Shown here piece by piece: positions 6 through 55,716 of a DNA stretch of 64,000 nt. Source of the stretch: a virus (Duplodnaviria; Heunggongvirae; Uroviricota; Caudoviricetes); the IMG/VR virus record IMGVR_UViG_2718218135_000001, positions 1-64,000 of that record, one strand, 5' to 3'. The translations under genes and the position numbers were made by a program. The notes under the pieces are model-generated. The model did no database searches and had not been told where the DNA came from. It saw nothing but the letters and a program-made list of their open reading frames with translations. The stretch's first letter is position 1, and every line of letters begins with the position of its first letter.

Positions 6-3731
<3,726 letters not shown>

Positions 3732-4398: not shown

Positions 4399-4729
4399 GA
4401 AAACAGCCCTGGTACTGGCGCTGCTCACTCTCCCCGTCTTTGCGGACACACATGTCTATGAGTGCGAAATGTTTGTGGTCGAAGCGAAAAACGGCCTGAT
4501 CCGCAACGTCGTTAAAGCTAATTACGGCGCGATGGTTGTGGACCGCGGCGAACAGTTTTATGTGGTACGCGATGATCGCGTCCTGTCTTCCCCGTTTCTC
4601 ACTAAACGTAACGGCGAACTATCTGGCGTAGGTAAAGATAGGTTCGTTTACAACAAATCGGGTGATGTATACGGCGTTCACGCGAAGAACGACAGCTACC
4701 TTTTCGATGACTGCAAGGAGATTAGTTGA
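4394..4729 (+). CDS. secreted hypothetical protein
   Basis: N-terminal signal-peptide-like segment MKKTALVLALLTLPVFA; RBS ggag upstream. Confidence 0.5.
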   Translation: MKKTALVLALLTLPVFADTHVYECEMFVVEAKNGLIRNVVKANYGAMVVDRGEQFYVVRDDRVLSSPFLTKRNGELSGVGKDRFVYNKSGDVYGVHAKNDSYLFDDCKEIS

Positions 4730-4941
4730 TGGCGGTTACACTGACAGGTCTGGAAATCGAAAAAACAAGCGGCTACTGGCGTGCCAAAGGGTTCAAGCAG
4801 TCCGGCGTACTGGAACGACGGGAACGTGAAGATGGGTATATTGTCCACCAGCGACGTGAATGGCGCATGTACGATCCGGAAACAGGTAAGCTCGCAACGA
4901 AGGCCGGGACACTCTGGGGTCTGCTGAAGAAAATCCACTGA
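4726..4941 (+). CDS. hypothetical protein
   Basis: 71 aa ORF whose start overlaps the preceding stop. Confidence 0.35.
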   Translation: MMAVTLTGLEIEKTSGYWRAKGFKQSGVLERREREDGYIVHQRREWRMYDPETGKLATKAGTLWGLLKKIH

Positions 4942-4944
4942 TAA

Positions 4945-5545
4945 CACTATCCACTGCGGTGAGTAGCCAGCTCACCGCGTGTGAATCCAGCTCATAACCA
5001 CTGTAGCGAGTAGAACACCCTTCAGGTATGCACCCCAACCACTGTAGTGAGCAAACCCTCTGCCACGATATCAACTATCCACTGTAGTGAGTAAATTGGT
5101 GATTATCGGGGTCGCTATACACTGTAGTGAGTAAACAGGCGTTCACTGACTACAAACAACCACTATAGAGAGTGATGGAATGCCCCCTCCAGCGGATATC
5201 CACTATGGAGAGTAAATCTTCGCTGTTTTAAACGGATATCCACTCACTACAGTGGATAGAGGTCAAGTCAGCCAATTCTGCTCTTCACAGTGGATAGTCA
5301 ACAATGAGGAGAGCGACGATAACCGCTGTAGAGAGTAGACTTAACAGAGATACCCAGTGACCGCTAACCTCTCAGCCCTTGTTTTATCTATGTTTGCAAC
5401 CACTAACATTTACTTCGCGATTTGTGCGCACTGCCTACAGTGGTTATTCTTCGGTTTCTTTTACTCACTACAGTGGATATTGCATTTCCGATAAACAAAA
5501 AGGCTCACTACAGTGGATAGTGAGCCTTTTTACTCTCTACAGTGG
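4945..5545. repeat. Iteron array downstream of repA (incA-like), at least 13 copies of a ~17-19 bp repeat in both orientations
   Basis: Repeated ATCCACTGTAGTGAGTA and variants (ccactgcggtgagta, ccactatagagagtga, actcactacagtggata) spaced ~35-45 bp. Confidence 0.8.
5496..5533. terminator. hairpin terminator at the 3' end of repA
   Basis: aggctcact...agtgagcct stem flanked by an A-run and a T-run; the stem is itself built from an iteron. Confidence 0.5.
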
Positions 5546-5550
5546 TTGGG

Positions 5551-6606
5551 CTATTTGCGAGCCTTTGCCTTGCGCAGCTCTTCGAGAATCGCCAGTTCTT
5601 CCTTGCTCAACATGACCATTTCCCCGTCTTTTTCTTCAGGGGCAACATCGATAATGTCCTCCGGATCATCACCTGGCAAGATATCTTCTGGCTCTTCAGG
5701 CGTAGCCATAGATGGCGGCAGTGCCGAACGTAACTTCGGCCGTCTATAGTGGATGACGAAGTAGACCGAGCTGCCGCGTTTCACTTCAGTGTAATCGAGA
5801 TAGCCGATCTCTCGCAGCTGCTCCATCGCCTTCCTGACTGTCGCATTCTGGGTAATGGTGCGGCTGGTTAAGTTAAGTCTGGCGCGTAAGCGAGCCAATG
5901 AGATTGGCGCCGGGTCTGGTGGCAAACTTTCAATGAAGGTGTAGAGCGCCTGCGCGGATTCTTTTCTGGAGAGTTCGTTGATGGCCCGAAGTTGCAAAAG
6001 CACCTTTTTGTCGAACTGGTAAAGTTCGAAAATCTTAGGATCGGCCTTCAGTTCGACCGTGTCATTCTTGGTACTGTACTTTGCCGTCTGCACAAGGTGC
6101 GTAACGTAATACTCTTCAGAGCCTTTGCTGCGGAATGAGATGGTGTTTGTGGCGATACGACTTAGAGAGCTGTCCAGGCGCTTACGTAACTTCGCGGACG
6201 ATCTGGCTGTTGGTATGCCACAAAGTCTGACGAACTCGACGAACGGCAACGTGACGGTGTCACCAACAACCTTGTGCTTGGCGAACGCGTGGATGATGCC
6301 CACCCATGTTTTGAAATCGTTATCCATATCAAGACGAAGACCAGCAATCCTTATATCCTCGTACCCTTCGGCTTTGGCCAGAGACAGCTGTTTGAGTTCA
6401 GCGGAGGCGTCCATAGAGACCATTTGCCCCTTTCTACCCCTGGATGTCGATTTCAGCGTCGGAACGAAGAGACCAAGACGCATCAGAGCAACAGGCTGAA
6501 CTGTGTTGTTGGTGTTAGGAACTAACGTAACAACTTCGCCGGTCTTTTTGTCTGTTTCGGAAAATGCTTCGCTTATCGCAATGTTTTTATTGTCGTTTAC
6601 GCTCAT
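5551..6606 (-). CDS. repA: RepA-like iteron-binding replication initiator
   Basis: 351 aa ORF flanked on both sides by iteron arrays, the classic RepA/incC/incA arrangement of iteron plasmids such as P1; the protein itself was not matched to a family. Confidence 0.6.
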
Positions 6607-6639
6607 TCCAAATGTCTCTTTTTATTCGACGGCTTGGGT

Positions 6640-7165
6640 GCCTTTACTGATTACAGTGGATAGTAGCACCCATCACAGTGGTTATCCTACCGCCTACAGC
6701 GGTTTTTCTACTCTCCATAGTGGTTGATTTACTCTCTATAGTGGTTGTTATTCTCACTATAGTGGATATCGATAACCTCTAAAGCCATGTGGCACAACGG
6801 TTTGCAGGGGCCGGGGATCTCTTTGGGTCTTTGTGGTTCTCTTTGGTTCTAACAGGGATCTGAATTACTGGATCGAGCCTGTGTATAAAAATCAGATAAT
6901 TACAAAATCAGGCATCACTCCCCTTCTGGGGATAATGTGTGATCGAAATAAACACGCCGCAACGCAAAATTTACAATATTTCCAAGAATATCAGCCATCT
7001 GCCGCAGAAAAACAGGCTCGGAGTTATCCAGTTAAAACATTGTCTCCTACTCACTACAGTGGATACCGACTACTCTCCAGAGAGGTTGTTTTGCTCTTCA
7101 TAGCGGTTATTATGCTCTCTACAGTGGTTATTTTGCTCTCTATAGTGGATAGTAACCCCTTCTCA
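6640..7165. repeat. Iteron arrays upstream of repA (origin/incC-like) with GATC clusters
   Basis: About 7 iterons (6650-6780) and about 5 iterons (7048-7160), same family as downstream; GATC-rich blocks lie between and after them. Confidence 0.75.
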
Positions 7166-7348
7166 AGCCAGTAACCGCAAGCGCTGGAGACGATCGGGGA
7201 TCTCTTTTGATCTTCTGTAGGATCTCTCTGGGGATCTAAATATTGGATCGGGCCTGTGAATAAAGTGAATAAGTAAACAGGCATTTGCAAACTCCGGTGC
7301 GCCTTATCCGTTATCGTTGCCCCGGACAAAATTATTTGAACAAGAATT

Positions 7349-7993
7349 ATGGATCTTAAACGCACGCGCTGGGTTCGCCGTCTTGAAGATGGCTCCTACA
7401 CCATTGAATCAAACACTAGTCTGAACAAACAGAAGTTGCTCTGCGACCTTTGCGGCATTGCTTCGAAATGCCCGATTAACGAAACCCGGCTTAAACTCCA
7501 CGACGCCGGTGCGCATTTCCACCTAAACAGCTGCATACGTTACGTGCCACTACTAGCATTTCGTAAACCGATCATCGGATTGGATGCTCCCTACTTCAAC
7601 ACACTGCGCTCTGGTGTCACTTGGCGAGATCGTGTCGAACCTGGCAAACTCGTTTGTCTGGTTGAAGCTGATACCGGAAATGTCATCCGGTTCGGGAGAG
7701 TTGATAAGGTCTACTCAGGCCCGGTGGATGAAATGCTGCGGAAACACAGCCGATTTAACCATCTCTGCATGGGCGGAGAGAAGATTGAGAAGGTTGGCGA
7801 AGTAATTCGCAAATCTTACGGACACTTTCTGAATGATAACAGCCTTCTGACAGCCATTTACATTCGCCATGTCGATCGGGAGTTCGACACGGAGTATCAC
7901 AGTGCTGAAGAGTTGAATCTTGTAGACCCTCGTCCAAAAGCTGGGGTAATAGACATCAGCAGAGCGCGTCAGAAGCCCTCAGAGACGTTTTAA
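7349..7993 (+). CDS. hypothetical protein
   Basis: 214 aa ORF, no motif recognised. Confidence 0.45.
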   Translation: MDLKRTRWVRRLEDGSYTIESNTSLNKQKLLCDLCGIASKCPINETRLKLHDAGAHFHLNSCIRYVPLLAFRKPIIGLDAPYFNTLRSGVTWRDRVEPGKLVCLVEADTGNVIRFGRVDKVYSGPVDEMLRKHSRFNHLCMGGEKIEKVGEVIRKSYGHFLNDNSLLTAIYIRHVDREFDTEYHSAEELNLVDPRPKAGVIDISRARQKPSETF

Positions 7994-14568: not shown

Positions 14569-15684
14569 GTGAGGTTGATTTTGTCTATCCTACTGAATCG
14601 AGACTTTACGAACGGTCAGTTTGCCAGTGGTTCGTATGCCAAAGTGGTTGAAACGGTGCTCAACACTGGCGTTCACGCGGGTGATCGCACCGGAACCGGC
14701 ACAAAAAGTGTTTCATATGTCCCTTCCTACTACATGCTGACGGGCGGATCTGTTCCACTTATCTCCGGAAAAGCCGTCAATCTGAAGCCGTTACTGGTTG
14801 AGCTGGAGTGGTATCTCAAAGGAACAGGCAACATCCAGTTCCTGAAAGACAATGGCGTCAAAATCTGGGATGCCTGGGCCGATGAAAATGGCGATTTAGG
14901 CCCGGTCTATGGCAAGCAATGGCGTCGGTGGGAAGACACTCGCATCGTGAGCCATAGCGAGTATCTGCGCAAAATCGACACGTTCCGTGAGCGCGGGTAC
15001 AAGGTCGAGGGGTATCTGGGCGTAAGTGAAGATCGCGTTGTGTTGTCCCGTGAAATTGACCAGCTACAGCGTATCGTTGACACGCTTCGCACCAACCCTA
15101 CAGATCGTCGCATCCTGCTGAATGCCTGGAATGTTGGCGAACTGGAAGATATGAAGCTGCCGCCATGCCATTTCGTGTTTTCACTGTGGAGTCGCGAGCT
15201 GGACTTTGAGACCCGACTGACTATGGCCACCGACATTGGCATACAGCACAACCGCCACGGCCACGAGTCCATTTACACCCAGATGCTGTGTCTTCTGGAA
15301 AGAGATGGCGGCATTACTGAGAACATGCTGGACGAGCTGGGCATCCCGAAACGCATTCTGAACTCATGCCTGGTTCAACGCAGTGTCGATACCTTTGTTG
15401 GTATGCCGTTCAACATCGCCGGTTACGGCATTCTCACCCACTTCCTCGCGAAGATCACCGGCCACATGGCTGGCGCATTCGTGCATTTTGGCTTTGACGT
15501 TCATCTCTACGACAACCACATGGAAGGCGTTGAGGAACTGATGAAGCGCGAGCCGCCCAAAGAGTCCGACCCGGTTGTCATCTTCCCGCATGAATGGGCC
15601 GAACTGGACGACTTCAAATGGGAAGGTGTGCAGGTGTGCGGCTACAGCCCTCTTCCGTGGATCAAGGTTCCAGTGGCGGTGTGA
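14569..15684 (+). CDS. thyA: Thymidylate synthase (ThyA family) with two large insertions
   Basis: DRTGTGT, WDAWADENGDLGPVYGKQWR, LPPCH catalytic cysteine, PFNIAGY, HLY; 371 aa versus about 264 for canonical ThyA; GTG start. Confidence 0.8.
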   Translation: MRLILSILLNRDFTNGQFASGSYAKVVETVLNTGVHAGDRTGTGTKSVSYVPSYYMLTGGSVPLISGKAVNLKPLLVELEWYLKGTGNIQFLKDNGVKIWDAWADENGDLGPVYGKQWRRWEDTRIVSHSEYLRKIDTFRERGYKVEGYLGVSEDRVVLSREIDQLQRIVDTLRTNPTDRRILLNAWNVGELEDMKLPPCHFVFSLWSRELDFETRLTMATDIGIQHNRHGHESIYTQMLCLLERDGGITENMLDELGIPKRILNSCLVQRSVDTFVGMPFNIAGYGILTHFLAKITGHMAGAFVHFGFDVHLYDNHMEGVEELMKREPPKESDPVVIFPHEWAELDDFKWEGVQVCGYSPLPWIKVPVAV

Positions 15685-19419: not shown

Positions 19420-20013
19420 ATGATCGCAGCCGAAAAAATCAAAAAGCGAGAGCGTGATGCCTCTCTTCGCGGCCTTTGGCGCACACCGCAGTGGTTGTTT
19501 GTCGCCATCCAACGTTACATAGGCGTAAAGTTCGATGTGGACGTCGCCTGCAACAAAGATAATGCTCTCCTGCCGAACTTTATCGGTGTTGAGCGTGATG
19601 CGCTCAAGTGCAGTTGGGGAGAACCTGGCACTGTGGTGTTCCTTAACCCGCCCTACTCCAAAATCACCCCCTGGATAGATGCAGCCATTCGCGAGCAGGC
19701 GCGTGGAGTGACGACGGTCATGCTGATACCACAATCCCTCGATACGCAGTGGTACGAGCGTGCGGCTGAATGCGCCAACGAAACCGTCATCTTGTCTGGC
19801 GGCCGCGTGGCGTTCGTTGAGCCGGATGTTGAACTTGGGCTGGTGGAGGTGAACATCAACCCTGGTGGCAGCATGTTGCTTATCTTCCGTGGCTACTGTC
19901 AGGAAGCTGGGCACACCATCAGCAAGATACCGCTGGCGGTGATGAAAAAGCTGGGTGGTTATGACCCTGCCAATGTAGTCAGGAAGAAGAGACCACGTAA
20001 AAAGGCAGCGTAA
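19420..20013 (+). CDS. DNA N6-adenine methyltransferase (phage Dam family)
   Basis: Catalytic FLNPPYS motif; about 197 aa. Confidence 0.65.
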   Translation: MIAAEKIKKRERDASLRGLWRTPQWLFVAIQRYIGVKFDVDVACNKDNALLPNFIGVERDALKCSWGEPGTVVFLNPPYSKITPWIDAAIREQARGVTTVMLIPQSLDTQWYERAAECANETVILSGGRVAFVEPDVELGLVEVNINPGGSMLLIFRGYCQEAGHTISKIPLAVMKKLGGYDPANVVRKKRPRKKAA

Positions 20014-28818: not shown

Positions 28819-30168
28819 AATACTGTTTATATGTGGGTCTTCCCCGATCATGGTGGGAAGGCTCAGAACTCCATATTCAGCTTACCGTAGTGGAACATCA
28901 CTCCCAGTTTAAAGCGCTCCCGGTTTCGGTATCCCCTGGCTTTTATTCTCAGCAACCTTATCTTGCTGTTAAGTGCCTCCGCATTTCCGTTTGAGACACT
29001 GTGTCGCATCGCATTCAGGATCCCGTACAGCCTTTTTCCTATCGTTTTCGCAGCATTTTTCATCATGGGAACGTCACTGTTAGCCGCCAGCGCCAGCCAT
29101 CTCTGCCAGTCACTCCGCCTTTCCTCGCTCCATGGCCTGTTCCAGATATCCTTTGCCAGCTCTTTCAGCGCCCAGCACTGGCTCGTCAGCTTCATCTGTG
29201 CACGCAGCCACATCAGCTTTTCCTGCCGGGATTCAGTCATCCACTTATCACTGTACTGCCACAGGAAGCGGGTTCCTTTTGCCTGGCGTCGGCTTTCAAC
29301 AGGGAGGTGCGGATGTTCATTCTGACGGGTTTTATCAACTACCTCGCCCAGTTGCTTCGCCACATGGAAGCGGTCAAAGGCGATTTTCTCAACCGCGCTG
29401 GGTAAGTGGATGCGCGCTGCTCTTATATAGCCCGCGTTCATGTCCATTGAGAGCGTTTTGATAGCCAGCAACTGCCCATCAGTGAGTGTGCGAAGATAGC
29501 CGGCAAGACTCTCTGTGCCGCGATCATCCGTTAAGGCCAGCGCCCGACCATCGCGATCGGAGATCACCGTTATGTAACGATGTCCTTTTTTAAAGGCGAC
29601 CTCATCCACATTCATATGACGGGCGGATAATGGCTTTTTTATCCGGGCAAGACCTCGCTTAACTGCCCGGGTCATAATGCCGTCAACCGCATTCCAGCTG
29701 AGCTTAAGTTGCTTCCTGACAGCATCAACGGTGCTGATTTTCAGCCATGAGAGAACGAACAATTCGAACAGCAACGTATACCGGCTTCCGGGGCCAGCCC
29801 ACGGAACAGGCAACGTCTGACAGCCATGCTCCGGACACATAATTCGTGGAACATCGGCTTCAACAATAGTGGTGAACTGGCAGGTATCAAGATGGCGCCA
29901 TTTACGATGACGGTGATCGTGAACAGAACAGGATTTACCGCAGGCCGGACAGGCTAGCCGGGTGTTTTCAGCGATCTCAATAGTGACAGTAACAGAACCG
30001 GCATTTTCATCGAGAGAAAGGGACTTTACCTGCCACGGATCGGACAGGTTGAGAATATGAGCGTAGAGGGACTTTTCGTCCATGGCGGTGACCTCTGGCG
30101 ATTAAATACACCATTATCATGCCTTCAGCCACCACAACAAGGGAAGACCCTTATATGTACAGTATTGC
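28819..30168 (-). mobile_element. ISL3-family insertion sequence (apparently intact)
   Basis: Imperfect ~27 bp terminal inverted repeats (aatactgtttatatgtgggtcttcccc / gggaagacccttatatgtacagtattg) bracket one transposase gene; target-site duplication not evident by eye. Confidence 0.7.
28863..30083 (-). CDS. ISL3-family transposase
   Basis: 406 aa; N-terminal zinc-finger CPACG...H..HRHRKWRHLD and DDE-type core. Confidence 0.8.
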   Translation of the reverse strand: MDEKSLYAHILNLSDPWQVKSLSLDENAGSVTVTIEIAENTRLACPACGKSCSVHDHRHRKWRHLDTCQFTTIVEADVPRIMCPEHGCQTLPVPWAGPGSRYTLLFELFVLSWLKISTVDAVRKQLKLSWNAVDGIMTRAVKRGLARIKKPLSARHMNVDEVAFKKGHRYITVISDRDGRALALTDDRGTESLAGYLRTLTDGQLLAIKTLSMDMNAGYIRAARIHLPSAVEKIAFDRFHVAKQLGEVVDKTRQNEHPHLPVESRRQAKGTRFLWQYSDKWMTESRQEKLMWLRAQMKLTSQCWALKELAKDIWNRPWSEERRSDWQRWLALAANSDVPMMKNAAKTIGKRLYGILNAMRHSVSNGNAEALNSKIRLLRIKARGYRNRERFKLGVMFHYGKLNMEF

Positions 30169-46370: not shown

Positions 46371-47627
46371 ATGGCCATCCCGTCGTCTCTGAGTCTCGTA
46401 CAGCTGCATTCTGGGCAGATGCAAGTCTTCCAGTCGCCACATCGTTTCAAAGTGGTGTGTGCGGGTCGACGCTGGGGTAAATCCCGGTTGTCGATCTCCA
46501 CCATCATCCGCGCGGCAGCCAAAGAGAAGAAGCAACGTGTCTGGTATGTCGCACCGACTTACCAGATGGCTCGCCAGATCTTGTGGGATGACCTGCAGGA
46601 AGTTCTGCCGCGCAAATGGGTTCGTAAGAAAAACGACACCACGATGACCATCGTGCTGAAGAACGGCTCTGAAATCGCGCTGAAAGGTGCGGATAAGCCC
46701 GATACGCTTCGTGGTGTGGCACTGCACTTTGTGGTGCTCGATGAATTTCAGGATATGAAGCCTGACACCTGGTACAAGGTACTGCGTCCGACACTGTCCT
46801 CCACCCGTGGCGGTGCGCTGATCATCGGTACGCCAAAAGGCTTCTCCGAGTTCCACAAGCTGTGGACTATCGGTCAGAACAAAGATTTGCAACGCAAGGG
46901 GCAGTGGAAGAGCTGGCAGTTCGTTACGGCCGATTCTCCGTTCGTACCGAGCGCGGAAATCGAAGCAGCGAAGAACGATATGGACCCTAAATCGTTCGCA
47001 CAGGAATACCTGGCCAGCTTCGAAAACATGTCCGGACGCGTTTACTACCCGTTCGACCGCAATGTGCATGTGAAGCCACTCCAGTTCAATCCGAAACTGC
47101 CGATCTGGGTTGGTCAGGACTTCAACATCGACCCTATGTCATCGGTCATCCTGCAACCGCAGCCAAATGGTGAACTGTGGGCTGTGGACGAATTGGTGTT
47201 GTTCTCTTCTAACACGGCTGAAGTGTGTGACGAGCTGGAGCGTCGATACTGGCGCTGGAAATCTCAGGTCACTATCTTTCCTGACCCGGCAGGTGCGTAT
47301 CGCCAGCACGCACGCGGCGAATCTGACGTCGACATCTTCAAAGAGAAAGGTTTCCTTCGAGTCGATTATCCGAAGAAGCACCCGCCGATCGCAGACCGTG
47401 TTAACGCAGTGAACCGCATGTTGATGAGTGCCTCGGGCGAAACCCGGTTGTACATCGATCCGAAGTGCAAACACCTCATCGACTCGCTGGAGAAGGTGAT
47501 CTACAAGCCAGGCTCACGCGATATGGATAAGACTGGCGGCATCGAACACAGTGCGGATGCGTTGGGTTATCCGGTTCATCGTAGGTATCCGGTGAAAAAT
47601 CGTGTTATTCTTGGTGGATCTAGATAG
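46371..47627 (+). CDS. terminase large subunit
   Basis: Walker A VVCAGRRWGKS, Walker B HFVVLDEFQDM, C-terminal RNaseH-like acidic motifs (GQDFNID, VDEL, FPDPAG). Confidence 0.75.
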   Translation: MAIPSSLSLVQLHSGQMQVFQSPHRFKVVCAGRRWGKSRLSISTIIRAAAKEKKQRVWYVAPTYQMARQILWDDLQEVLPRKWVRKKNDTTMTIVLKNGSEIALKGADKPDTLRGVALHFVVLDEFQDMKPDTWYKVLRPTLSSTRGGALIIGTPKGFSEFHKLWTIGQNKDLQRKGQWKSWQFVTADSPFVPSAEIEAAKNDMDPKSFAQEYLASFENMSGRVYYPFDRNVHVKPLQFNPKLPIWVGQDFNIDPMSSVILQPQPNGELWAVDELVLFSSNTAEVCDELERRYWRWKSQVTIFPDPAGAYRQHARGESDVDIFKEKGFLRVDYPKKHPPIADRVNAVNRMLMSASGETRLYIDPKCKHLIDSLEKVIYKPGSRDMDKTGGIEHSADALGYPVHRRYPVKNRVILGGSR

Positions 47628-47642
47628 GTAAGTACTTACCTA
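47625..47642. promoter_or_regulatory. Perfect 18 bp palindrome TAGGTAAGTACTTACCTA between terL and the portal gene
   Basis: Exact palindrome directly after the terL stop, 19 bp before the portal ATG. Confidence 0.5.
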
Positions 47643-47660
47643 AGCGGAAAGGAAAATCAA

Positions 47661-49235
47661 ATGGAATTGACTGACAAGCAAATCAAAGACCTTGTGGCAC
47701 GACGCCACCCTGAATATGAGAAGAAAAAAGAACATTGGGACTTCCTCGCCAGCACCTACGCTGGCGGGCGTGCCTGGTTCAACGACAATATCTTCCGTTA
47801 CTTCAAAGAGGGCGATCAGGAGTTCAAAGAGCGCCTGGAACGCGCTTATCGCTTCAACCATACGCGCGAAGTGGTAAACCTCATCAACAAATACCTCTTC
47901 AAAGAGGTCATTCACCGCAACACTGATGAAGCACCGGAGCAGATCCGCAATTTCTGGAAGCGAGCCACGCGCCAGAACGCCTCCATCGATGCGTTTATGG
48001 CGGCTATCGATCTGCAATCATCCATTTATGGCCGTATCTGGGTTGTCGTGGATAGCACGATGAACGTCGATGTTGAGTCTGTTGCAGACGAGAAGAAAAA
48101 TGATGCGCGTGCCTACGCTTACTGGATTTCGCCGCAGCAGCTGCTTGATGTTGCCTGGGATGAAGACGGCAATATGTTGTGGGCGCTGATTGTTGAAATC
48201 GCGCGCGACGACGAAGATCCGTTCACTTCAACCGGGCAGGAATACCAGCGTTACCGTCTGTGGACGCAAAACGAGTGGTATCTGTTCCGTGAAGAAGTGA
48301 AGAAGGGTTCCGGAAATAGCGGTCGCCGTCAGGCCAAAGTCGTTCTGGAGGATAGCGGCCAGCATAATCTGGGCGTGGTGCCGGTGTTCCCGGTGGATTG
48401 CATTGGTGAAAGCGAGTCTCCGTATTTTAGCCCGTCGTTGATTGACGATATTGCCTATCTTGATCGCGCCGTGGCCAACTACCTGTCGAACCTTGACGCG
48501 ATTATTCAGGATCAGACATTCAGCCAGTTAGCGATTCCGGTTCAGTCCCTGCTGCCGGGCGATGAAAACCACACCAAAGTGCTCGAAATGGGGACAAAAC
48601 GTGTCTTCACCTTCGATTCTGAGAGCGGTAATCAGCCATTCTATCTGTCTCCAGACCCGAAACAGGCTCAGATGATCATCACCACGATTAAGACGGTGAT
48701 TAATGAGATCTACCATTCCGTTGGTGTGGCTGGTGAGCGAACCAAGCAGGATAACGCGCAGGGTATCGACAACTCTTCGGGGGCAGCGAAGATGTACGAC
48801 TTCCAACGTATTAACAGTCTGCTGGTGACAAAAGCAGAGCGCCTCGAAAGGGCAGAACGCCAAATGATGGAGTTGGCTGCGAAATGGATGGGCATCGAAT
48901 TGGATGAAGACCACTCTCTGATCGCTTACCCGGAGAGTTTCGATATTCGTGGTCTGACTGACGAATTTGCCGTCGCTGAGAAATTGTCGCTGTTACAGGC
49001 GCCTGATTCTGTACGTCGTCATCAGATGGAAATGCTCATAGAAAAGATCTTCCCGAATATTTCCGAAGCGATGCAAAAGGAATTTAAAAAAGATCTCTTG
49101 AAATTTCCTCTAAAAAATGCTCCTGATGCCCTTGAAAATAAGTTAGTACTTACTTATGATCGCGATACAGTCCAAGGAAGCGGACAAGATCAACCCCGAG
49201 GGAATGGGGACTCATCTACTCAAGAGACCGAGTGA
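47661..49235 (+). CDS. portal protein (putative)
   Basis: 524 aa ORF directly after TerL, no NTPase motifs; assignment by position and size. Confidence 0.55.
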   Translation: MELTDKQIKDLVARRHPEYEKKKEHWDFLASTYAGGRAWFNDNIFRYFKEGDQEFKERLERAYRFNHTREVVNLINKYLFKEVIHRNTDEAPEQIRNFWKRATRQNASIDAFMAAIDLQSSIYGRIWVVVDSTMNVDVESVADEKKNDARAYAYWISPQQLLDVAWDEDGNMLWALIVEIARDDEDPFTSTGQEYQRYRLWTQNEWYLFREEVKKGSGNSGRRQAKVVLEDSGQHNLGVVPVFPVDCIGESESPYFSPSLIDDIAYLDRAVANYLSNLDAIIQDQTFSQLAIPVQSLLPGDENHTKVLEMGTKRVFTFDSESGNQPFYLSPDPKQAQMIITTIKTVINEIYHSVGVAGERTKQDNAQGIDNSSGAAKMYDFQRINSLLVTKAERLERAERQMMELAAKWMGIELDEDHSLIAYPESFDIRGLTDEFAVAEKLSLLQAPDSVRRHQMEMLIEKIFPNISEAMQKEFKKDLLKFPLKNAPDALENKLVLTYDRDTVQGSGQDQPRGNGDSSTQETE

Positions 49236-49257
49236 TAAGTAACGAAAAGGTATTTCT

Positions 49258-50154
49258 ATGAATCTGTGGCAAATGCTTATGGCCCGTCGTGGCCTGATGG
49301 ATGTAGCCGAAGCGCATGAGCGCGGCGGCGCTGGTGGCGGTGCTCCTGCTGGAGACAATGAGCAGAGCATTCAAGACCCAGGCAAACAGGGCGAGCAAAA
49401 AGAGCAACCGAAGGGTGACGACGACGAGTATGCCGGTATGACTCAGGAAGAGTTGCTGGCAGAACTGCGTAAGTCTAAGAAAGCCGGTGCTGATCTGTTG
49501 AAAGAGAATATGAAGCGCAAGGAGAAAGAGCGCACATTGGCCGATCAGCTGGCTCAGTACGGTGATATTGACCCGACGCGTGCTCGTCAGCTTCTCGAAG
49601 CTGAACAAGCCGCAGAAACCGCACGTCGGGAGGCGGAGCAGGCTGAACTGGAACGTCGTGGTGAGTTCGATGCTGTGAAAAAGCAGATGATCGAAGCACA
49701 CCAGACTGAACTGGCACAGCGCGACGAACGCTACGCCGCTCTGGAGAGCGAGAACGCCGCACTGAAGGCTCAACTGGTCGAAATGACTGTTGGTGTTTCC
49801 TTCAGCAGTTCTGCTTTCCTGCGTGACAAAGTTCTGATGACTCCGGCTAAGGCACGCGTTATCTACGGCTCTCATTTCGAAGTGGGTGAAGACGGTAGTG
49901 TTGTGGGCTTTGATAAGCCAGCCGGTCAGAAAGAACGTGCAGTTCTGGTTGACGGTGAAGGCAAGCCGTTACCGTTCGAATCCGCGATTGAGCGCATTCT
50001 GCGTGCAGATCCGGAAGCTGACGCACTGTTGCGTAGCGAAGCCAAGCAGGGTGCTGGTTCCAATAGCAAACCGCCCCACAAAGTAAGCCAGCCGAAGAGC
50101 AAGTCGACTATGGATAAGTTGACCTCCGGTCTGGGAAAAATCGGACTCAAGTAA
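49258..50154 (+). CDS. scaffolding protein (putative)
   Basis: Charged, coiled-coil-rich 298 aa protein between portal and capsid genes. Confidence 0.5.
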   Translation: MNLWQMLMARRGLMDVAEAHERGGAGGGAPAGDNEQSIQDPGKQGEQKEQPKGDDDEYAGMTQEELLAELRKSKKAGADLLKENMKRKEKERTLADQLAQYGDIDPTRARQLLEAEQAAETARREAEQAELERRGEFDAVKKQMIEAHQTELAQRDERYAALESENAALKAQLVEMTVGVSFSSSAFLRDKVLMTPAKARVIYGSHFEVGEDGSVVGFDKPAGQKERAVLVDGEGKPLPFESAIERILRADPEADALLRSEAKQGAGSNSKPPHKVSQPKSKSTMDKLTSGLGKIGLK

Positions 50155-50180
50155 CATCTTAAATCATAGGGAAATGAAAG

Positions 50181-51056
50181 ATGCCATTACTGCGTGATGA
50201 AGCTGAAAAGCTGTCTAATAACGAACTTGAGCAGGGTGTGATCGAGACCATCATCGATCGCGATGATCTGTTCGCTATTCTGCCTTTCATGAAGATTAAT
50301 TCTAAGGCATACCTTTACAACCGCGAAGCTACCCTGAGCGAAGCTACCTTCATTGATGTGAACGACACCATCACTGAAGGCGCAGCAACCTTCAGCGAAC
50401 ACGTTGCGAAGCTACGTATCCTGGCAGGCGACGTAGACGTCGACAAATTCCTGGCGACCACTATGTCCGACACCAACAACCAGCTGGCAATCCAGGTTCG
50501 TCAGAAGGTGAAAGGTCTGGCTCGCGCATTCCGCCGCAACCTGATTCTGGGCGACTCCAGCACCAACACCAAAGCGTTCGACGGTATTCCGAAACTGATG
50601 CACGACGATCAGAAGATCGACATCGAAGGCGCTTCCATGACCTTCTCCATGTTCGACGAACTGGTCGACGCGGTGAAAGATCTGGGTGCGGACTGCATCA
50701 TGATGCGCTCCGAGCATCTGCGTGCTTATCGCGCTCTGCTGCGTACCGTTAATATCGGCCCGTCCGAAATTATGATGGAAAACTTCGGTCGACCGATGTT
50801 GTGCCACAACGGTGTACCTTTCATCGTGAACGACTTCATCCCGACTGACGCGGGCAAAGCAAGCATCTATTGTCTGCACCTGTCCGAAGAGAACGGTGTG
50901 ACCGGTCTGTATGGCGGTGAAAACGCTGGTATCGTTGTTGAGAACATCGGTACTGTTCAGAACAAAGACGCAACCCGTACCCGCGTTAAGTGGTACTGCT
51001 CTCTGGCGAACAAGCACGACAAAGCTATCGCCGCGCTGACCAATGTAAAAATTTGA
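50181..51056 (+). CDS. major capsid protein (putative)
   Basis: 291 aa ORF after the scaffold gene, followed by a strong terminator; position-based. Confidence 0.5.
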   Translation: MPLLRDEAEKLSNNELEQGVIETIIDRDDLFAILPFMKINSKAYLYNREATLSEATFIDVNDTITEGAATFSEHVAKLRILAGDVDVDKFLATTMSDTNNQLAIQVRQKVKGLARAFRRNLILGDSSTNTKAFDGIPKLMHDDQKIDIEGASMTFSMFDELVDAVKDLGADCIMMRSEHLRAYRALLRTVNIGPSEIMMENFGRPMLCHNGVPFIVNDFIPTDAGKASIYCLHLSEENGVTGLYGGENAGIVVENIGTVQNKDATRTRVKWYCSLANKHDKAIAALTNVKI

Positions 51057-51091
51057 TCAGAATACTAGGTAAGTAGTTATCTACTTAATAT

Positions 51092-51118
51092 GGGTGGGCT
51101 ATACGCCCACCTTTTTTG
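51092..51118 (+). terminator. rho-independent terminator
   Basis: ggtgggc-tatac-gcccacc followed by TTTTTT. Confidence 0.7.
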
Positions 51119-51130
51119 TAGGAGCGATAA

Positions 51131-51559
51131 ATGCCAGAACAAAAGATGAAAATCATGGAGGAGACGTTTGCGGATTTCACAGGGCATATGTGCCGTGCCG
51201 GATTCACCAACTCCGTCTCCAACGAGCCTCTGAGCGAGCGCCAGCAGAACCATCTTGCGGCTTGCTTCCGGACAGTTCCGTTCACGCAGTCTGTCAGCGT
51301 GGAGTCTGTTGCTCTGACTCCTGATTCTGTCTCTGTTGAGAAGGGGAAGTCAGTCAAATTGCGAGTTGATGTGCAACCGTCAAACGCAACCAATCAAAAA
51401 GTCACCTGGACTTCTCAAAATAGCGACAAAGCGACCGTGGATCAGAACGGTAACGTAGTTGGCGTAGCCGTTGGTACGGCAACCATTGAAGTGGCTTCAC
51501 ATGATGGCAGTCACAAAGCGACTGCGACCGTTGAAGTGACCGCAGCACCGGCTGCGTAA
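51131..51559 (+). CDS. Ig-like (Big_2-type) domain protein, probable head decoration protein
   Basis: C-terminal VKLRVDVQPSNATNQKVTWTSQNSDKATVDQNGNVVGVAVGTATIEVAS, typical bacterial Ig-like group 2 pattern. Confidence 0.55.
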   Translation: MPEQKMKIMEETFADFTGHMCRAGFTNSVSNEPLSERQQNHLAACFRTVPFTQSVSVESVALTPDSVSVEKGKSVKLRVDVQPSNATNQKVTWTSQNSDKATVDQNGNVVGVAVGTATIEVASHDGSHKATATVEVTAAPAA

Positions 51560-51590
51560 CCAACATATGGGCAGCATAGCTGTCCATTAA

Positions 51591-52037
51591 GTGAGAAGAA
51601 AAATGAAACCAGCAAAAATTCGTTTATTGGAGCCTCAATTTTTGGGGTACACGGGGATTCTCTGCGGTATCAAGTTTGTAGACGGTATCTCAGTTGCTGA
51701 ACTGCCATTCGTCGATCAGCAGCGGATTTGTGCTTCCATGCGTGCGACTACCGTTGAAGGTAAAAATGTATCTCCTTCTGCCGCGTACAGTAGCCGCAAT
51801 AACTTGACTGCGGAAGACATTGTCGAGACGCCAGCCCCGGATATTGTGCCAATGAAACGTGGTGCGGCTGAAACAAAGCCCAAACCGGTACAGCGCTTTA
51901 CTCGTGAAGAACTGGAGTCGATTGCGGACTGTGAAGGTATTGCGGGTCTTCGTCAGATCGGCAACCAAATTGGCGTGAAAGCCAAAGGCATCGTTGAAAT
52001 GATCGAGGGTATCCTGAAAGCACAGGGCGGTGAGTAA
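51591..52037 (+). CDS. virion structural protein (hypothetical)
   Basis: 148 aa ORF in the head module. Confidence 0.4.
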   Translation: MRRKMKPAKIRLLEPQFLGYTGILCGIKFVDGISVAELPFVDQQRICASMRATTVEGKNVSPSAAYSSRNNLTAEDIVETPAPDIVPMKRGAAETKPKPVQRFTREELESIADCEGIAGLRQIGNQIGVKAKGIVEMIEGILKAQGGE

Positions 52038-52870
52038 TGGCACAGATCGACACGTACCGTAGCGGGGAAGCCGTTTCCCTGTCGTTTGCATTTAACGTTC
52101 TGGATATTGAGTCGGCAACGTATACCGTCAGAGATGGCGCGGGTTCGATCATCGTTGATAACGAACCTCTCGATATTACTGAGGGGCAGATGTCCATTCC
52201 GGTTGTCGTGTCGGCCGAACACAACCTGCTTGCCGACAAAGAGCGCGATCTGCGTTACGTCCTCGTCAAAGCGGTGGCATCCGGTCTGACGCATGAAGAG
52301 CGCAAGATGTACGTTCTGCTAAATAGCTTCGAGCTGTCTATCCCAGGCCAGTCATTCGCAACGGTCGCAGACGCCCAGATGCAAGCCATCGACATGCTGA
52401 ACGGCGACACTCTGTTGGCTGATGGTGACGGGCTGATGCGCAAACGTCTCATTGAGGCCACCAGACGCGTCAAAACGCTGCCGTTTTCAATCCGCAAAGT
52501 CCTTCGTATCGATTTCGATCGGTACGACCGTCCACAAAACATGCTGAACGTATATGACGTACCGTGGGGTGCTGACGGGGCATATCGTCACGATCTGATT
52601 GATTGGGAGAAGATGACGCAGGATAAATTCGACGAATTCCCTGACTACTTCAAACAGACATTAATGCTGGCCGTGGTTAATGAAGCCTGCGAAATCGCTA
52701 ACGGCAATGACGTAGCGGCAGCTCGCGAGGACGGCATCCTGTCTGAATCCATTGGTGAAACGACAAATATGTACCGCACCGGCAAAGCGGCAAATTTACA
52801 TGTGGCTCGCAGTACCTGGAGACTGCTGGTCAGCTACATCAACAACCGCATGATTGTTCGCCGTGCGTAA
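52037..52870 (+). CDS. virion structural protein (hypothetical)
   Basis: 277 aa ORF, ATGA-coupled to the upstream gene. Confidence 0.45.
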   Translation: MAQIDTYRSGEAVSLSFAFNVLDIESATYTVRDGAGSIIVDNEPLDITEGQMSIPVVVSAEHNLLADKERDLRYVLVKAVASGLTHEERKMYVLLNSFELSIPGQSFATVADAQMQAIDMLNGDTLLADGDGLMRKRLIEATRRVKTLPFSIRKVLRIDFDRYDRPQNMLNVYDVPWGADGAYRHDLIDWEKMTQDKFDEFPDYFKQTLMLAVVNEACEIANGNDVAAAREDGILSESIGETTNMYRTGKAANLHVARSTWRLLVSYINNRMIVRRA

Positions 52871-52967
52871 CGCCAGTCGCATTATTTACTTCTGGTCGAA
52901 AGGCTCAAGACGCACAATCGCGCCTTCGCCTGGTAATGCGTGCGGATGCCAACCACAGGGAGAGTGC

Positions 52968-53312
52968 ATGAACATTTCATGGCAAGCAGAGATGGCGATT
53001 TACCGTCTGGGTTCGAAGAATGTCTACGGTGAAGCGCAATTGCAGTTCGTCAGGAAGACGAACGTCGGTGTCGTTAAGTTTGAACAAAGTAATGAGAAGT
53101 CATCGGTACGTGCGGACAGCTCCGGCAGTCGCGGAAAAGCCAATATGGAATTGTTCGATGTCGTTCTGGTGGTCCCACTTGAGGCCGCAGTGCAACTTGA
53201 TGACGTTCTTATTCTGGAGGGGCTAAAGCTGAAGGTATCCAGTGTGCATCGTCGTTGGGGGTTACGTGGACGCCCTGGTCATCTGGAAGTAGGGGCAAAC
53301 ATATGGGCCTGA
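52968..53312 (+). CDS. head-tail joining protein (hypothetical)
   Basis: Internal ATG of ORF 52854..53312 with RBS agggagag. Confidence 0.4.
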   Translation: MNISWQAEMAIYRLGSKNVYGEAQLQFVRKTNVGVVKFEQSNEKSSVRADSSGSRGKANMELFDVVLVVPLEAAVQLDDVLILEGLKLKVSSVHRRWGLRGRPGHLEVGANIWA

Positions 53313-53776
53313 AGTATGACTCGCATCAGTTTAAGCGTGCTGGCGACAGACTCAATAACAGCCAGAAAGCCTTTAAGCGTTATCTCATTCGTGACATGGA
53401 GAAGCTGGCGCGTCTGGTTGAGCGTCTGGCGCGGGCAATGGCTCCGCTGGAGACTGGCTCACTCGAAAGCGCGATTTTCGCGAGAGTTGTCAAAGAGGGC
53501 TATACGGGGCTGCGTATTGAGTTATCGGTGTCTGGGGCTAAACCGCGCGAAGGGAACCCTGGTGTTGAGGTTGGCGATTATGCGGAGTACATGGAGTTGG
53601 GCAAGTATCGTCTCGGCTATCTCTCCCGCATGAAGAGCGTCACCAACCCGCCAGTTGCTGGTGTGAAGCCACGCGTTGGGCCTTTGTTCCTTGAAAGAGC
53701 GGCACAGGTCAGTGAGAAACAGTTCGCTCAGACGATAGCTGAAGCAGCAAGGAAAGCAGGTTTTACGAGAGGTTGA
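53303..53776 (+). CDS. head-tail joining protein (hypothetical)
   Basis: Internal ATG of ORF 53255..53776, overlapping the upstream stop. Confidence 0.4.
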   Translation: MGLKYDSHQFKRAGDRLNNSQKAFKRYLIRDMEKLARLVERLARAMAPLETGSLESAIFARVVKEGYTGLRIELSVSGAKPREGNPGVEVGDYAEYMELGKYRLGYLSRMKSVTNPPVAGVKPRVGPLFLERAAQVSEKQFAQTIAEAARKAGFTRG

Positions 53777-53777
53777 T

Positions 53778-54161
53778 GTGTTTATTGAAGCATTTGCGAG
53801 CCTGATGCAGAAGGCGAAGATCGGCACACTCGGCACTGACATTTTCTGTCACTACATGCCAGCCAATGTGAAGTCCGGCATCCTGTTGGTTACTCCCAAT
53901 ACGGGGATCGCCATTGACCATGAGTTAAAAGGTTTTTATCACGACTCTTTTACCGTCATCGTGCGTAATGCGACGATCACAAAGGCGGTGGCGAAAGCCA
54001 ATAAGATCATGGACATGTTTCCGGTCGAGGAAACCGTGTCAGATGGCGTTTACTTCCGGTTGGTACGACCAATGTCGATGCCGATAACTTATCCAAAAAA
54101 CGAAGGCTCGTTGATTGAAGCGGGCATCCCGATTGAATTTGCGGGCTATTTGTTGAATTAA
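53778..54161 (+). CDS. tail-completion/terminator-like protein (hypothetical)
   Basis: 127 aa ORF immediately before the major tail gene; GTG start. Confidence 0.35.
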   Translation: MFIEAFASLMQKAKIGTLGTDIFCHYMPANVKSGILLVTPNTGIAIDHELKGFYHDSFTVIVRNATITKAVAKANKIMDMFPVEETVSDGVYFRLVRPMSMPITYPKNEGSLIEAGIPIEFAGYLLN

Positions 54162-54235
54162 CAAAATAAGTAAATATATACTTACTATTGGCGCCATGAA
54201 GGTGCTGATTTAACGGAAAAAGGAGTTTTCCAACA

Positions 54236-54982
54236 ATGTCCAATACCCATGTAAAAAACATCAAACTTGGCGCCTGCAAAGTGTCGTTTGGTGGTGTTGA
54301 TCTGGGTTACACCAAAGGCGGTGTTCAGGTTGAGGTTGCGACCGAAACTCTGAAAGTTACCGTAGACCAGCTAGGGCAAACCACCATCTCCGAGCTGGTA
54401 CAGGGCCGTAACATCACTATCACTGCGCCGCTGGCCGAGTCTGTGTTGCAGAATATGGTCGATCTGATGCCGGGTTCTACCCTGAGTGAAGAAGATAACT
54501 CTGTGACCATCACTTCCGCACAGGGCGTCAACCTGATCGACGTAGCTAAAGAGCTGGTTCTGACCCCGCAGGATACCACCGACTACGTTCTGACCATCCC
54601 GAAAGCTGCGACCGCAGGTAACTTCACCATGACCTACCAGTCTGATGATGTTCGCGTGTTCTCGGTTCAGTTCACCGCTTACCCGGATGACGACGGTATT
54701 CTGGGGAAAATGAGCGGCCCAAAGCCGGTTAAATCCGTCTCTATCTCTCCGGATTCTCCGGAAGTTAAAGCCGGTGAGAGCGTGCAGCTGGCAGCCCAGA
54801 TCACACCTGCAGATGCCGGCGACAAAACCGGTGTGTGGGAGTCCGACAATCAGGAGAAGGCTACCGTTGATCAGACTGGTCTGGTTCGCGGAGTAGCTGA
54901 AGGTTCGGCAAATATCTCCTTCACCAGCAATAGCGGCGGCAAGAAAGCGACCAAAGCTGTAACGGTTAATTCTGCCGAATAA
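54236..54982 (+). CDS. major tail protein with C-terminal Ig-like (Big_2) domain
   Basis: 248 aa; C-terminal VKSVSISPDSPEVKAGESVQLAAQITPADAGDKTGVWESDNQEKATVDQTGLVRGVAEGSANISFT; strong RBS aaaggag; terminator follows. Confidence 0.6.
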   Translation: MSNTHVKNIKLGACKVSFGGVDLGYTKGGVQVEVATETLKVTVDQLGQTTISELVQGRNITITAPLAESVLQNMVDLMPGSTLSEEDNSVTITSAQGVNLIDVAKELVLTPQDTTDYVLTIPKAATAGNFTMTYQSDDVRVFSVQFTAYPDDDGILGKMSGPKPVKSVSISPDSPEVKAGESVQLAAQITPADAGDKTGVWESDNQEKATVDQTGLVRGVAEGSANISFTSNSGGKKATKAVTVNSAE

Positions 54983-54998
54983 TCGTGACGTGACTAAG

Positions 54999-55026
54999 CA
55001 GAGGCTCAGGAAGAGCCTCTCTTTTA
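54999..55026 (+). terminator. rho-independent terminator
   Basis: agaggctc-agga-agagcctct followed by cttttaaaa. Confidence 0.6.
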
Positions 55027-55041
55027 AAAGGATTTTAACCA

Positions 55042-55359
55042 ATGACCAAATTACTCGATCTCGACTCCATTCTACCTCCGAAGAAAAGTATCAAGTTCGG
55101 CGGTCAGGAATACCCCATCGTTGAAATGACAGTTGGTCTGTTCGTCTCCATCAAGCAGATGGAAGGCAAAGATCTTCAGAACATGTCTCCTGTAGAGCAG
55201 GTTACTGCTTACGCCGACCTGGTTCGCAAGGTCATCCCATCCGTGCCGGACGCTGTACTGGAAAAACTGACTGTTCCGCAGCTTCAGCAAATCTTCACCT
55301 TCGCTATGGAAGTGATTGATGAAGAGAACGAAAAAGCGGCTGGTGAAGGGGCAAAGTAA
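55042..55359 (+). CDS. tail assembly chaperone (lambda G-like)
   Basis: 105 aa acidic protein between major tail and tape-measure genes. Confidence 0.55.
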   Translation: MTKLLDLDSILPPKKSIKFGGQEYPIVEMTVGLFVSIKQMEGKDLQNMSPVEQVTAYADLVRKVIPSVPDAVLEKLTVPQLQQIFTFAMEVIDEENEKAAGEGAK

Positions 55360-55709
55360 TTTCCCGCGATGAATCCGGGGTAAAGACCGTATCGATAGAT
55401 CTCGGATTCTATTTCAGTCGTGTAGTTGCTCACTACGCCGTGTCGCCATTAGAGCTGCTGGGCGTCCCTCTAACGATGTTCTGGATGCTCAGTCGCAACA
55501 TCGACCGTCTACGTGCGGAAGAGGATGTCCGCAACCTGCAAGTCGCTCGCGCTGCCCAGGCAGATGGCGAGGGCGTGAAGGCGTTCATGGAGGGTTTGCA
55601 ACTCAGGATTGGAAGACCAGTCGTAACCGATAAAGTCTACGATCCGCGCAAGGATAAGGCAGACCCTGACGCCAAAGAGCAACTGATGCAAATTTTTGGC
55701 AGAGGATGA
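55347..55709 (+). CDS. tail assembly chaperone extension (lambda T-like), probably made as a G-T fusion by -1 frameshift
   Basis: -1 frame is open from 55347 across the G stop to 55709, overlapping the tape-measure start; no canonical slippery heptamer identified. Confidence 0.4.
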   Translation, partial: RGKVISRDESGVKTVSIDLGFYFSRVVAHYAVSPLELLGVPLTMFWMLSRNIDRLRAEEDVRNLQVARAAQADGEGVKAFMEGLQLRIGRPVVTDKVYDPRKDKADPDAKEQLMQIFGRG

Positions 55710-55716
55710 CAAGGGA

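Follow-up and report, generated by a model that had tools for sequence, protein, structure and literature searches.

In the annotated record of phage P1, a myovirus, the plasmid replicon has two DnaA boxes first, then five Dam sites within 55 bp; next come five incC iterons, the initiator gene repA, and nine incA iterons. The incC iterons are spaced at 21 bp and contain PrepA, while the first incA iteron abuts repA and the incA array, spaced at 30–41 bp, consists of three direct and six inverted copies. When the Yersinia pestis plasmid pMT1 was sequenced in 1998, the likeness of its replicon to RepFIB, RepHI1B, and P1/P7 was reportedly noted. A 2025 study of a FIB replicon assigned origin function to the iterons upstream of rep and control by handcuffing to those downstream (PMC11983097), and SSU5-like phage-plasmids are a group described by Pfeifer et al. 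(PMC7969092). Here we analyzed a 64-kb stretch of viral DNA (hereafter the window; positions 1 to 64,000 of IMG/VR record IMGVR_UViG_2718218135_000001), in which the region 4948–7272 very probably is the plasmid-maintenance replicon of an SSU5-like phage-plasmid, belonging to the P1 RepA/RepFIB family and to the IncFIB pHCM2/pMT1 type. This replicon type is already known, near-identical entries exist in the databases, and the locus is no new kind of system.

The 2.45-kb replicon region was 99.7% identical to Escherichia coli plasmids annotated with repA and typed IncFIB, ~89% identical to Salmonella phage SSU5 (over the whole length), Y. pestis pMT1, Salmonella Typhi pHCM2, and Enterobacter plasmids, and ~82% identical to the E. 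coli phage-plasmid Cyrano (pLF82) and one Shigella plasmid. As a whole, the window aligned collinearly with pEC21Z137-115K, a plasmid of 115 kb, and in part with pMT1, and these two served as references for the whole element; the best-scoring plasmid, p1585m1_B, was dropped because it is a mosaic, multi-replicon resistance plasmid. Virion genes of the SSU5 type are present on the plus strand at 46371–60288, including those for the terminase large subunit (46371–47627), the portal (47661–49235), the major head protein (50181–51056), and the tape measure (55696–60288). They matched PHROGs with E-values from 1e-65 down to 0, and the virion module was collinear with both references. This module shows that the element is both phage and plasmid, and the near-identity of the replicon, the collinearity, and the virion genes together identify it as an SSU5-like phage-plasmid. 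SSU5-type phages have a siphovirus-like virion (PMC9928086), which applies to this element by relatedness.

An earlier note on this DNA, made from the letters alone, had proposed an extrachromosomal prophage lifestyle, and the distribution of the replicon agrees with that proposal. Among 5,426 complete E. coli genomes, the replicon was matched 154 times in 129 genomes, and all 154 matches were on plasmids, with no chromosomal copy. The relatives pMT1, pHCM2, and pEC21Z137-115K are each typed IncFIB only, circular relatives range from 94 to 115 kb, and for Cyrano, a related phage-plasmid, ~5.5 copies per cell and the production of virions are reported (PMC9928086). Autonomous replication is supported indirectly, by the exclusively plasmid-borne matches and by the relatives that carry IncFIB as their only replicon. 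All host genera found for the replicon were enterobacteria.

The gene repA (5551–6606, minus strand; PHROG 775) encodes a 351-aa initiator of the Rep_3 family that is predicted to bind iterons. Its product shares 49% identity with P1 RepA over 267 aa, which is nearly the whole P1 protein (BLASTP, E 1e-92), is 93% identical to SSU5 RepA, and shows 91–93% identity across the SSU5/pHCM2/pMT1/Cyrano group. The Pfam family Rep3_N was matched with 44.6 bits, against a cut-off of 22.4. Read in the sense of repA, the window presents two DnaA boxes (7272–7255), a GATC block (7249–7192), iterons (7151–7050), a second module made up of a DnaA box (6888–6880), heptamers (6874–6812), and iterons (6768–6647), then repA, and finally 14 control iterons. 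Apart from the second module, P1 has the same order and spacings, with its DnaA site annotated at the same relative position. The origin cores also align, P1 TTATCCACATTATCCACTGGATAGATCCAATAATCAGGTCC...AGATCCCTGATCG with TTATTCACTTTATTCACAGGCCCGATCCAATATTTAGATCC...AGATCCCCGATCG in the window, and the distal, proximal, P1, and F RepFIB cores were alignable together. Given the homology of RepA and of the origin core and the shared order of parts, the term "P1-style replicon" used in the earlier note becomes a statement of homology. Five traits of the P1 RepA/RepFIB type were found: an initiator of the Rep_3 family, which has two winged-helix domains, iterons at about 21-bp spacing upstream, iterons in two orientations downstream, DnaA boxes, and GATC heptamers.

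Iterons were searched for with the 16-bp core CTCWCTAYAGTGGWTA, allowing up to three mismatches, in the 64-kb window and in shuffled sequence. The window gave 26 matches, whereas shuffles gave 1.6 on average and 6 at most. Twenty-three of these matches were intergenic and flanked repA (4948–7151), one was a weak copy with three mismatches inside repA at 5740, and two were elsewhere. Degenerate copies were found in phase at 7073 (four mismatches) and at 6690 (five mismatches by our own count, four in SSU5). Around repA, the iterons of this one family number 25, with 14 downstream (4948–5548) and 11 upstream. The earlier estimate of more than 25, with at least 13 downstream and about 12 upstream, was essentially right although slightly high, and the downstream copies do occur in both orientations, eight on the minus strand and six on the plus strand.

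The upstream iterons form two plus-strand arrays with a spacing of 21–23 bp. The proximal array, directly upstream of repA, has six copies (6647–6768; starts at 6647, 6669, 6690, 6711, 6732, and 6753) spaced at 21–22 bp, and is 86–89% conserved across three sub-lineages, represented by the window, SSU5, and Cyrano. The distal array has five copies (7050–7151; starts at 7050, 7073, 7094, 7115, and 7136) spaced at 21–23 bp.

The downstream iterons are spaced mostly at 29–47 bp, and the copies in the orientation of the origin iterons are nearest to repA while inverted copies are farthest. Four plus-strand control iterons (5431–5548; starts at 5431, 5464, 5504, and 5533) share the orientation of the origin iterons, and the last of them ends 2 bp before the repA stop codon. 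Three of mixed orientation follow at 5243–5335 (5243 and 5281 on the plus strand, 5320 on the minus strand). The remaining seven, recovered by both the pattern search and repeat families, are arranged head to tail at 4948–5212 on the minus strand, inverted relative to the origin iterons, with core starts at 4948, 4995, 5036, 5076, 5116, 5157, and 5197 and a spacing of 40–47 bp; they correspond to the far part of P1 incA. The iteron at 5243 is preceded by an inverted half-site, which creates a GGATATCC palindrome. Two 12-bp near-palindromes centered on GGATATCC (5188–5199 and 5233–5244) each consist of an iteron end and an inverted half-site, and they could be candidate sites for RepA dimers, by analogy with the operators that dimers bind in mini-F or pPS10.

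Among plasmids that are more than 99% identical, the control array varied in length by whole units of ~41 bp. Relative to the window, pE16EC1016-4 has four additional units, a duck isolate and pEC21Z137-115K each have one fewer, and further plasmids have one, two, or three additional units as judged from match lengths. The inverted sub-array thus contains six to eleven copies, giving 13–18 control iterons overall (4948–5212 compared with L007 549–962, L008 549–758, and pEC21Z137-115K). Such variation fits unequal recombination and suggests that it is frequent, and array length may tune copy number.

GATC sites occur 286 times in the window, or 4.47 per kb. Six of them fall within 58 bp in the distal origin core (7192–7249, minus strand), at 7192, 7199, 7209, 7221, 7233, and 7246, carried by heptamer-like repeats that mostly read AGATCC and recur about once per helical turn. 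This block is the densest cluster and the sole place in the window with more than three GATC sites in 65 bp; when 286 sites were placed at random, at least six fell within 60 bp in 12 of 5000 placements. The proximal block has three sites (6816, 6857, and 6871), and since ~7 clusters of at least three sites are expected by chance, it is not unusual by count. Of the two GATC blocks singled out in the earlier note, the six-site block is therefore exceptional in density, while the interest of the three-site block lies solely in its being a sequence copy of the six-site one. DnaA boxes are predicted at the outer edges of both modules. The distal module has two in tandem (7255–7272, minus strand), a perfect TTATTCACA and a TTATTCACT with one mismatch, and the proximal module has a single TTATACACA (6880–6888, minus strand) that perfectly matches TTATNCACA and is conserved in relatives as TTATACACA or TTATCCACA.

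The origin module is duplicated in tandem: each copy has DnaA-box, heptamer, and iteron parts, and the period is ~383 bp. The distal module holds the full ancestral set of two DnaA boxes, six GATC sites, and five iterons, and the proximal module has one DnaA box, six iterons, and a heptamer block (6812–6874, minus strand) that is a copy of the origin core in which three GATC sites are kept and three heptamers are non-GATC (AGAACC, AGAACC, and AGACCC). Both modules were conserved in all three sub-lineages, and the three non-GATC heptamers were non-GATC in each, with A/C variation at one position only. Compared segment by segment among the window, SSU5, and Cyrano, heptamer blocks were 75–98% and iteron arrays 85–94% identical. 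The spacer between the modules was 86% identical to that of SSU5 and 63–65% identical in the comparisons with Cyrano, in which the heptamer blocks showed 75–96% identity.

To place the duplication in a wider context, 80 species-representative loci with RepA relatives of 61–95% identity, from Enterobacterales genera including Pantoea, Rahnella, Erwinia, Kluyvera, and Xenorhabdus, were scanned with an origin-core profile. Two origin cores were found in 38 of the 80 loci; their distal cores had 5–6 GATC sites and their proximal cores 1–5, and the distal core was the richer one in 37 of the 38. In nine loci, a far core located 440 bp or more upstream of repA was the only one, and in the three of these that were read, iterons adjoin repA without a heptamer block. 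A lone near core, like that of P1 and F, was present in 32 loci, although at least one of them (L036) is cut short upstream. What stays constant across the surveyed clade is a complete distal origin together with an iteron array at the start of repA, while the proximal heptamer block is variable. On these comparative grounds, the distal module is probably the working origin, a view that we hold with modest confidence, and the proximal module, with its iterons at the repA promoter, would act mainly as the repA operator and as a handcuffing partner. An IncFIB(K) plasmid (NZ_CP027054; L011 3198–3295) has extra iterons beyond its GATC core, away from rep and with no second heptamer block, which may in part parallel the duplication in the window.

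The C-terminal tail of RepA (residues 295–351, ~57 aa, encoded at 5551–5724) is acidic and rich in Glu, Asp, and Pro, with a basic end. It has no counterpart in P1 RepA and is present in most, not all, relatives. A correlation between this tail and the duplicated origin was considered and rejected, since loci with the tail and a single core exist (L075–L082).

The following mechanism was deduced from P1 and from the FIB model (PMC11983097). RepA monomers would bind the iterons of the distal module at their 21-bp spacing, host DnaA would bind the flanking DnaA boxes, and the DNA would open at the adjacent GATC-heptamer block. Methylation of this block by host Dam would be required for firing; after replication, the hemimethylated block would be bound by SeqA and re-initiation would be delayed. 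The distal core is accordingly pictured as a Dam-methylated, SeqA-sensitive opening region, and origin function as Dam-dependent and subject to SeqA sequestration. RepA bound to the proximal iterons, next to its own start, would repress repA transcription, and the 14 downstream iterons would titrate RepA and handcuff the origin iterons, resulting in a low copy number. In P1, a single array is both origin and operator, whereas here the duplication would split the two roles. An Rfam scan of 4600–7500 returned only a sub-threshold RefA9 match (28.7 bits against a gathering score of 49), probably by chance, and thus gave no sign of antisense-RNA control in that interval. A 2026 preprint on phage-plasmid repA mutations was set aside because it deals with a different replicon that is controlled by CopA/CopT RNA.

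Several points weigh against this account. The Rep3_C match of RepA, at 20.7 bits, falls just under the Pfam cut-off of 21.1, and no solved structure matched RepA by sequence; no NCBIfam model matched it either. Promoter-like matches in the region were at chance level (5 found, 3.2 expected), and the only one oriented with repA (6783–6756, minus strand; 9 of 12 positions) is weak, with a −35 element that is not conserved. With promoter and terminator matches at chance level, the repA promoter is not precisely placed. The assignment of origin to the distal module and of operator to the proximal one comes from comparative logic, and Dam dependence, established for P1 and reported for a RepFIB-type replicon, is carried over from there to this sub-family. 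Finally, the proximal heptamer block is more conserved between sub-lineages (85–96%) than the distal block (75–77%), and it therefore has some function in this lineage that the proposed mechanism leaves unexplained.

The conservation of the proximal block, far above that of the spacer, also bears on a different assignment, in which both upstream modules are working origins, or the proximal module is the origin, with one module Dam/SeqA-dependent and the other largely methylation-insensitive, so that the replicon would have two initiation modes. In the proximal module, a perfect DnaA box and heptamer-like repeats are retained, along with six iterons spaced at 21 bp, and nearly half of the surveyed loci (38 of 80) keep two recognizable cores. 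However, the nine loci with a far core only, including the three with proximal iterons and no heptamer block, indicate that the proximal heptamer block is dispensable at depth. In loci with two cores, the distal core never has fewer than five GATC sites, while the proximal core can have as few as one; the proximal module has a single DnaA box, against two in the distal one; and mutational studies of the P1 origin core are reported to show that changed GATC bases inactivate the origin. We regard two working origins, or a proximal one, as unlikely. A further and similarly doubtful suggestion is that the tandem duplication is a functional design and not a leftover, in which a fully Dam/SeqA-gated distal origin is accompanied by a proximal module that has lost methylation sites to an extent that differs between lineages and that either uncouples autoregulation of repA from firing of the origin or serves as a methylation-insensitive second origin. 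If true, such a second origin could be used on hemimethylated or unmethylated DNA, for example just after infection or during rapid replication.

For the distal module as a methylation-gated origin, the conservation of its GATC sites is the relevant evidence. The five GATC sites nearest to the DnaA boxes were invariant in SSU5, pMT1, pHCM2, Cyrano, the Klebsiella and Cronobacter phage-plasmids, and IncFIB(K), and the sixth was present in all aligned replicons, shifted by one column in two of them. These invariant sites persist across replicons whose Rep proteins and iterons differ, and ~2,500 IncFIB plasmids matched solely the ~100-bp origin core, at 60–80% identity. It could be argued that the sites matter only as conserved heptamer sequence, serving as a protein-binding or easily melted repeat, and that methylation plays no part. 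The proximal copy does accept AGAACC and AGACCC where AGATCC would stand and is nevertheless conserved, and P1 itself has one AGGTCC heptamer. Within the distal block, however, the GATC bases are the conserved columns and the intervening bases vary. Dam dependence is reported for the homologous P1 oriR (Abeles and Austin, 1987; Abeles et al., 1993), and involvement of Dam is reported for REPI of pColV-K30, a replicon of the RepFIB type (Gammie and Crosa, 1991). A purely structural role of the heptamers is thus improbable, and gating of the distal module by methylation remains the preferred interpretation.

The earlier note had further suggested that the element ties its replication to a methyltransferase of its own, which it called a Dam-family enzyme. 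The gene at 19420–20013 (plus strand) encodes a phage-type N6-adenine DNA methyltransferase that matches PF05869, named "Dam" (E 5e-36), and TIGR01712 (108 bits, cut-off 97), and no other Pfam family. PF05869 is not the EcoDam family; its members do not all target GATC, and some methylate adenine non-specifically. The protein is 98.9% identical to that of SSU5, 37% identical to Stx-phage enzymes, and 27% identical to T1 Dam. Its gene is conserved in SSU5-like elements and was found on 720 plasmids of Klebsiella, Escherichia, Enterobacter, and Salmonella, of which 710 were non-mobilizable and 6 conjugative.

If this enzyme methylated the origin GATC cluster, replication could depend on it or be timed by it. 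The SSU5-like elements that conserve the gene also carry the conserved GATC core, the SSU5 and window proteins are nearly identical, and some PF05869 members (phage T1 and Stx-phage Dam) are reported to methylate GATC. Yet pMT1, which is typed IncFIB only and has the same origin with six distal GATC sites, has no homologue of the gene, and at most one of 63 Yersinia plasmids with this replicon carries it. The same GATC core occurs in F RepFIB and IncFIB(K), and the F and IncFIB(K) stretches that were read list no methyltransferase. Only six of the 720 plasmids are conjugative, the hosts are all enterobacteria, which carry their own Dam, and the enzyme is only 27–37% identical to characterized relatives, in a family whose specificity extends to non-specific adenine methylation. 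Because pMT1 maintains the origin without the enzyme and the hosts supply Dam, the replicon does not need the methyltransferase that the element encodes, and the proposed tie between the two has no support. Dependence on it, or timing by it, is quite improbable, although a modulating role is possible. An unrelated DNA methylase with a DPPY motif is encoded in pMT1 (L102 38123–38800; 88123–88800 of the record), and its gene neighborhood, which includes ArdA and DUF1380 genes, looks like the leading region of a plasmid.

An integrase had been named in the earlier note as the finding that would speak against a plasmid lifestyle. Close relatives (pEC21Z137-115K and pMT1) do have a tyrosine recombinase (PF00589, 36 bits), annotated as a site-specific integrase, in a part outside this window, and no homologue of it was found within the 64-kb window. 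This is not decisive, as the replicon was never chromosomal in E. coli, and for the same reason the recombinase is more likely a dimer-resolution enzyme; P1, too, resolves its plasmid dimers with a tyrosine recombinase, Cre. It is extremely unlikely that this DNA comes from a prophage that integrates or from a defective remnant, with the repA region as a relic, because even though the recombinase carries an integrase annotation and some carriers of the replicon are mosaic, multi-replicon plasmids, none of the 154 E. coli matches was chromosomal, repA is intact, the iterons are conserved across genera, circular relatives with a single replicon exist, Cyrano is kept as a plasmid at 5.5 copies per cell, and a recombinase of this kind is present in P1 as well.

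Two open reading frames (ORFs) adjoin the replicon in all SSU5-like relatives. The one at 4726–4941 encodes 71 aa and is annotated as P1 Cra-like or Cre-associated (SSU5 and Cyrano), and the one at 7349–7993 encodes 214 aa, matches PHROG 2105, and is annotated as an ASCH-domain protein in Cyrano. Farther out, the window begins with a gene for the type I restriction enzyme R subunit HsdR (6–3023; SWI2/SNF2, ResIII, and HSDR_N domains), followed by a 228-aa ORF (3038–3724) whose translation, read by eye, resembles the catalytic part of an IS3-family transposase; relatives have different defense cargo at this spot (6–3724). A thymidylate synthase ORF of 371 aa (14569–15684) matched its Pfam model in two stretches, which suggests an insertion of ~100 aa compared with typical ThyA. 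In the accessory region, an ISL3-family transposase (28863–30083; DDE_Tnp_ISL3, E 6e-56) belongs to an insertion that is also present in pEC21Z137-115K, as ISKox3.

The replicon, assigned to IncFIB(pHCM2) by typing tools, maintains SSU5-like phage-plasmids, including pMT1 of Y. pestis and pHCM2 of S. Typhi, and near-identical replicons occur on some mosaic plasmids with antibiotic-resistance genes. Its anatomy is therefore useful for typing, for the construction of mini-replicons, and for curing. Curing strategies built on control iterons have been shown for FIB replicons (PMC11983097). In the duplicated origin, one copy still has all its Dam sites while the other is missing some; along with the varying number of control iterons, this offers an inexpensive, testable handle on how iteron plasmids keep origin firing apart from autoregulation of the initiator and on how they tune copy number. 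No description of the iterons or the duplicated origin of the SSU5-like sub-family was found in the open-access papers searched. Of all the features of the locus, only the duplicated origin and the variable control array met with no description there, and the duplication is the feature in which the locus differs from P1.

Compared with P1, the likeness extends to details. The incC array has the same number of iterons (five) and the same spacing as the distal array of the window, and in both replicons the first control iteron abuts repA and the control array is split into direct and inverted copies. P1 and the present element are both plasmid prophages that encode an adenine methyltransferase. 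The iteron itself is different, TATCCACTATAGAGAG in the window and GATGTGTGCTGGAGGGAAA in P1, the two being unrelated, and a different iteron sequence means a different incompatibility group. P1 has no tandem duplication of the origin, its control iterons number nine instead of 14, and its RepA lacks the acidic tail of 57 aa. In addition, the control array of P1 is followed by parAB-parS, whereas that of the window is followed by small ORFs, one of them Cra-like, with no par operon; in a close relative, a ParA-like gene lies far from the control array. The traits of the Punavirus plasmid module, parAB-parS right after incA and the P1 iteron, were thus absent from the window.

The RepFIB replicons of F, P307, pO157, pColV-K30 (REPI), and IncFIB(K) resemble the window in that rep is flanked by iterons, and the window replicon, like this group, is typed IncFIB by typing tools. 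The core of DnaA boxes and GATC heptamers is the same, with five GATC sites in F and six in IncFIB(K). F and IncFIB(K) differ in having a single origin module instead of a duplicated one, in Rep proteins with only ~43–50% identity to the window RepA, and in their iterons. The start of repA is an ATG conserved among the relatives of the window, while FIB rep is reported to start at CTG (PMC11983097).

The closest match is with SSU5, pHCM2, pMT1, and Cyrano (pLF82), which have the same replicon, with 82–90% nucleotide identity over 2.45 kb, both origin modules, and six distal GATC sites. The same gene neighbors, the Cra-like ORF and the 214-aa ORF, flank the replicon in these elements and in the window. 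Only lineage-level differences were found within this group: the window represents an E. coli sub-lineage, together with the plasmids that are more than 99% identical to it, and the number of control iterons differs.

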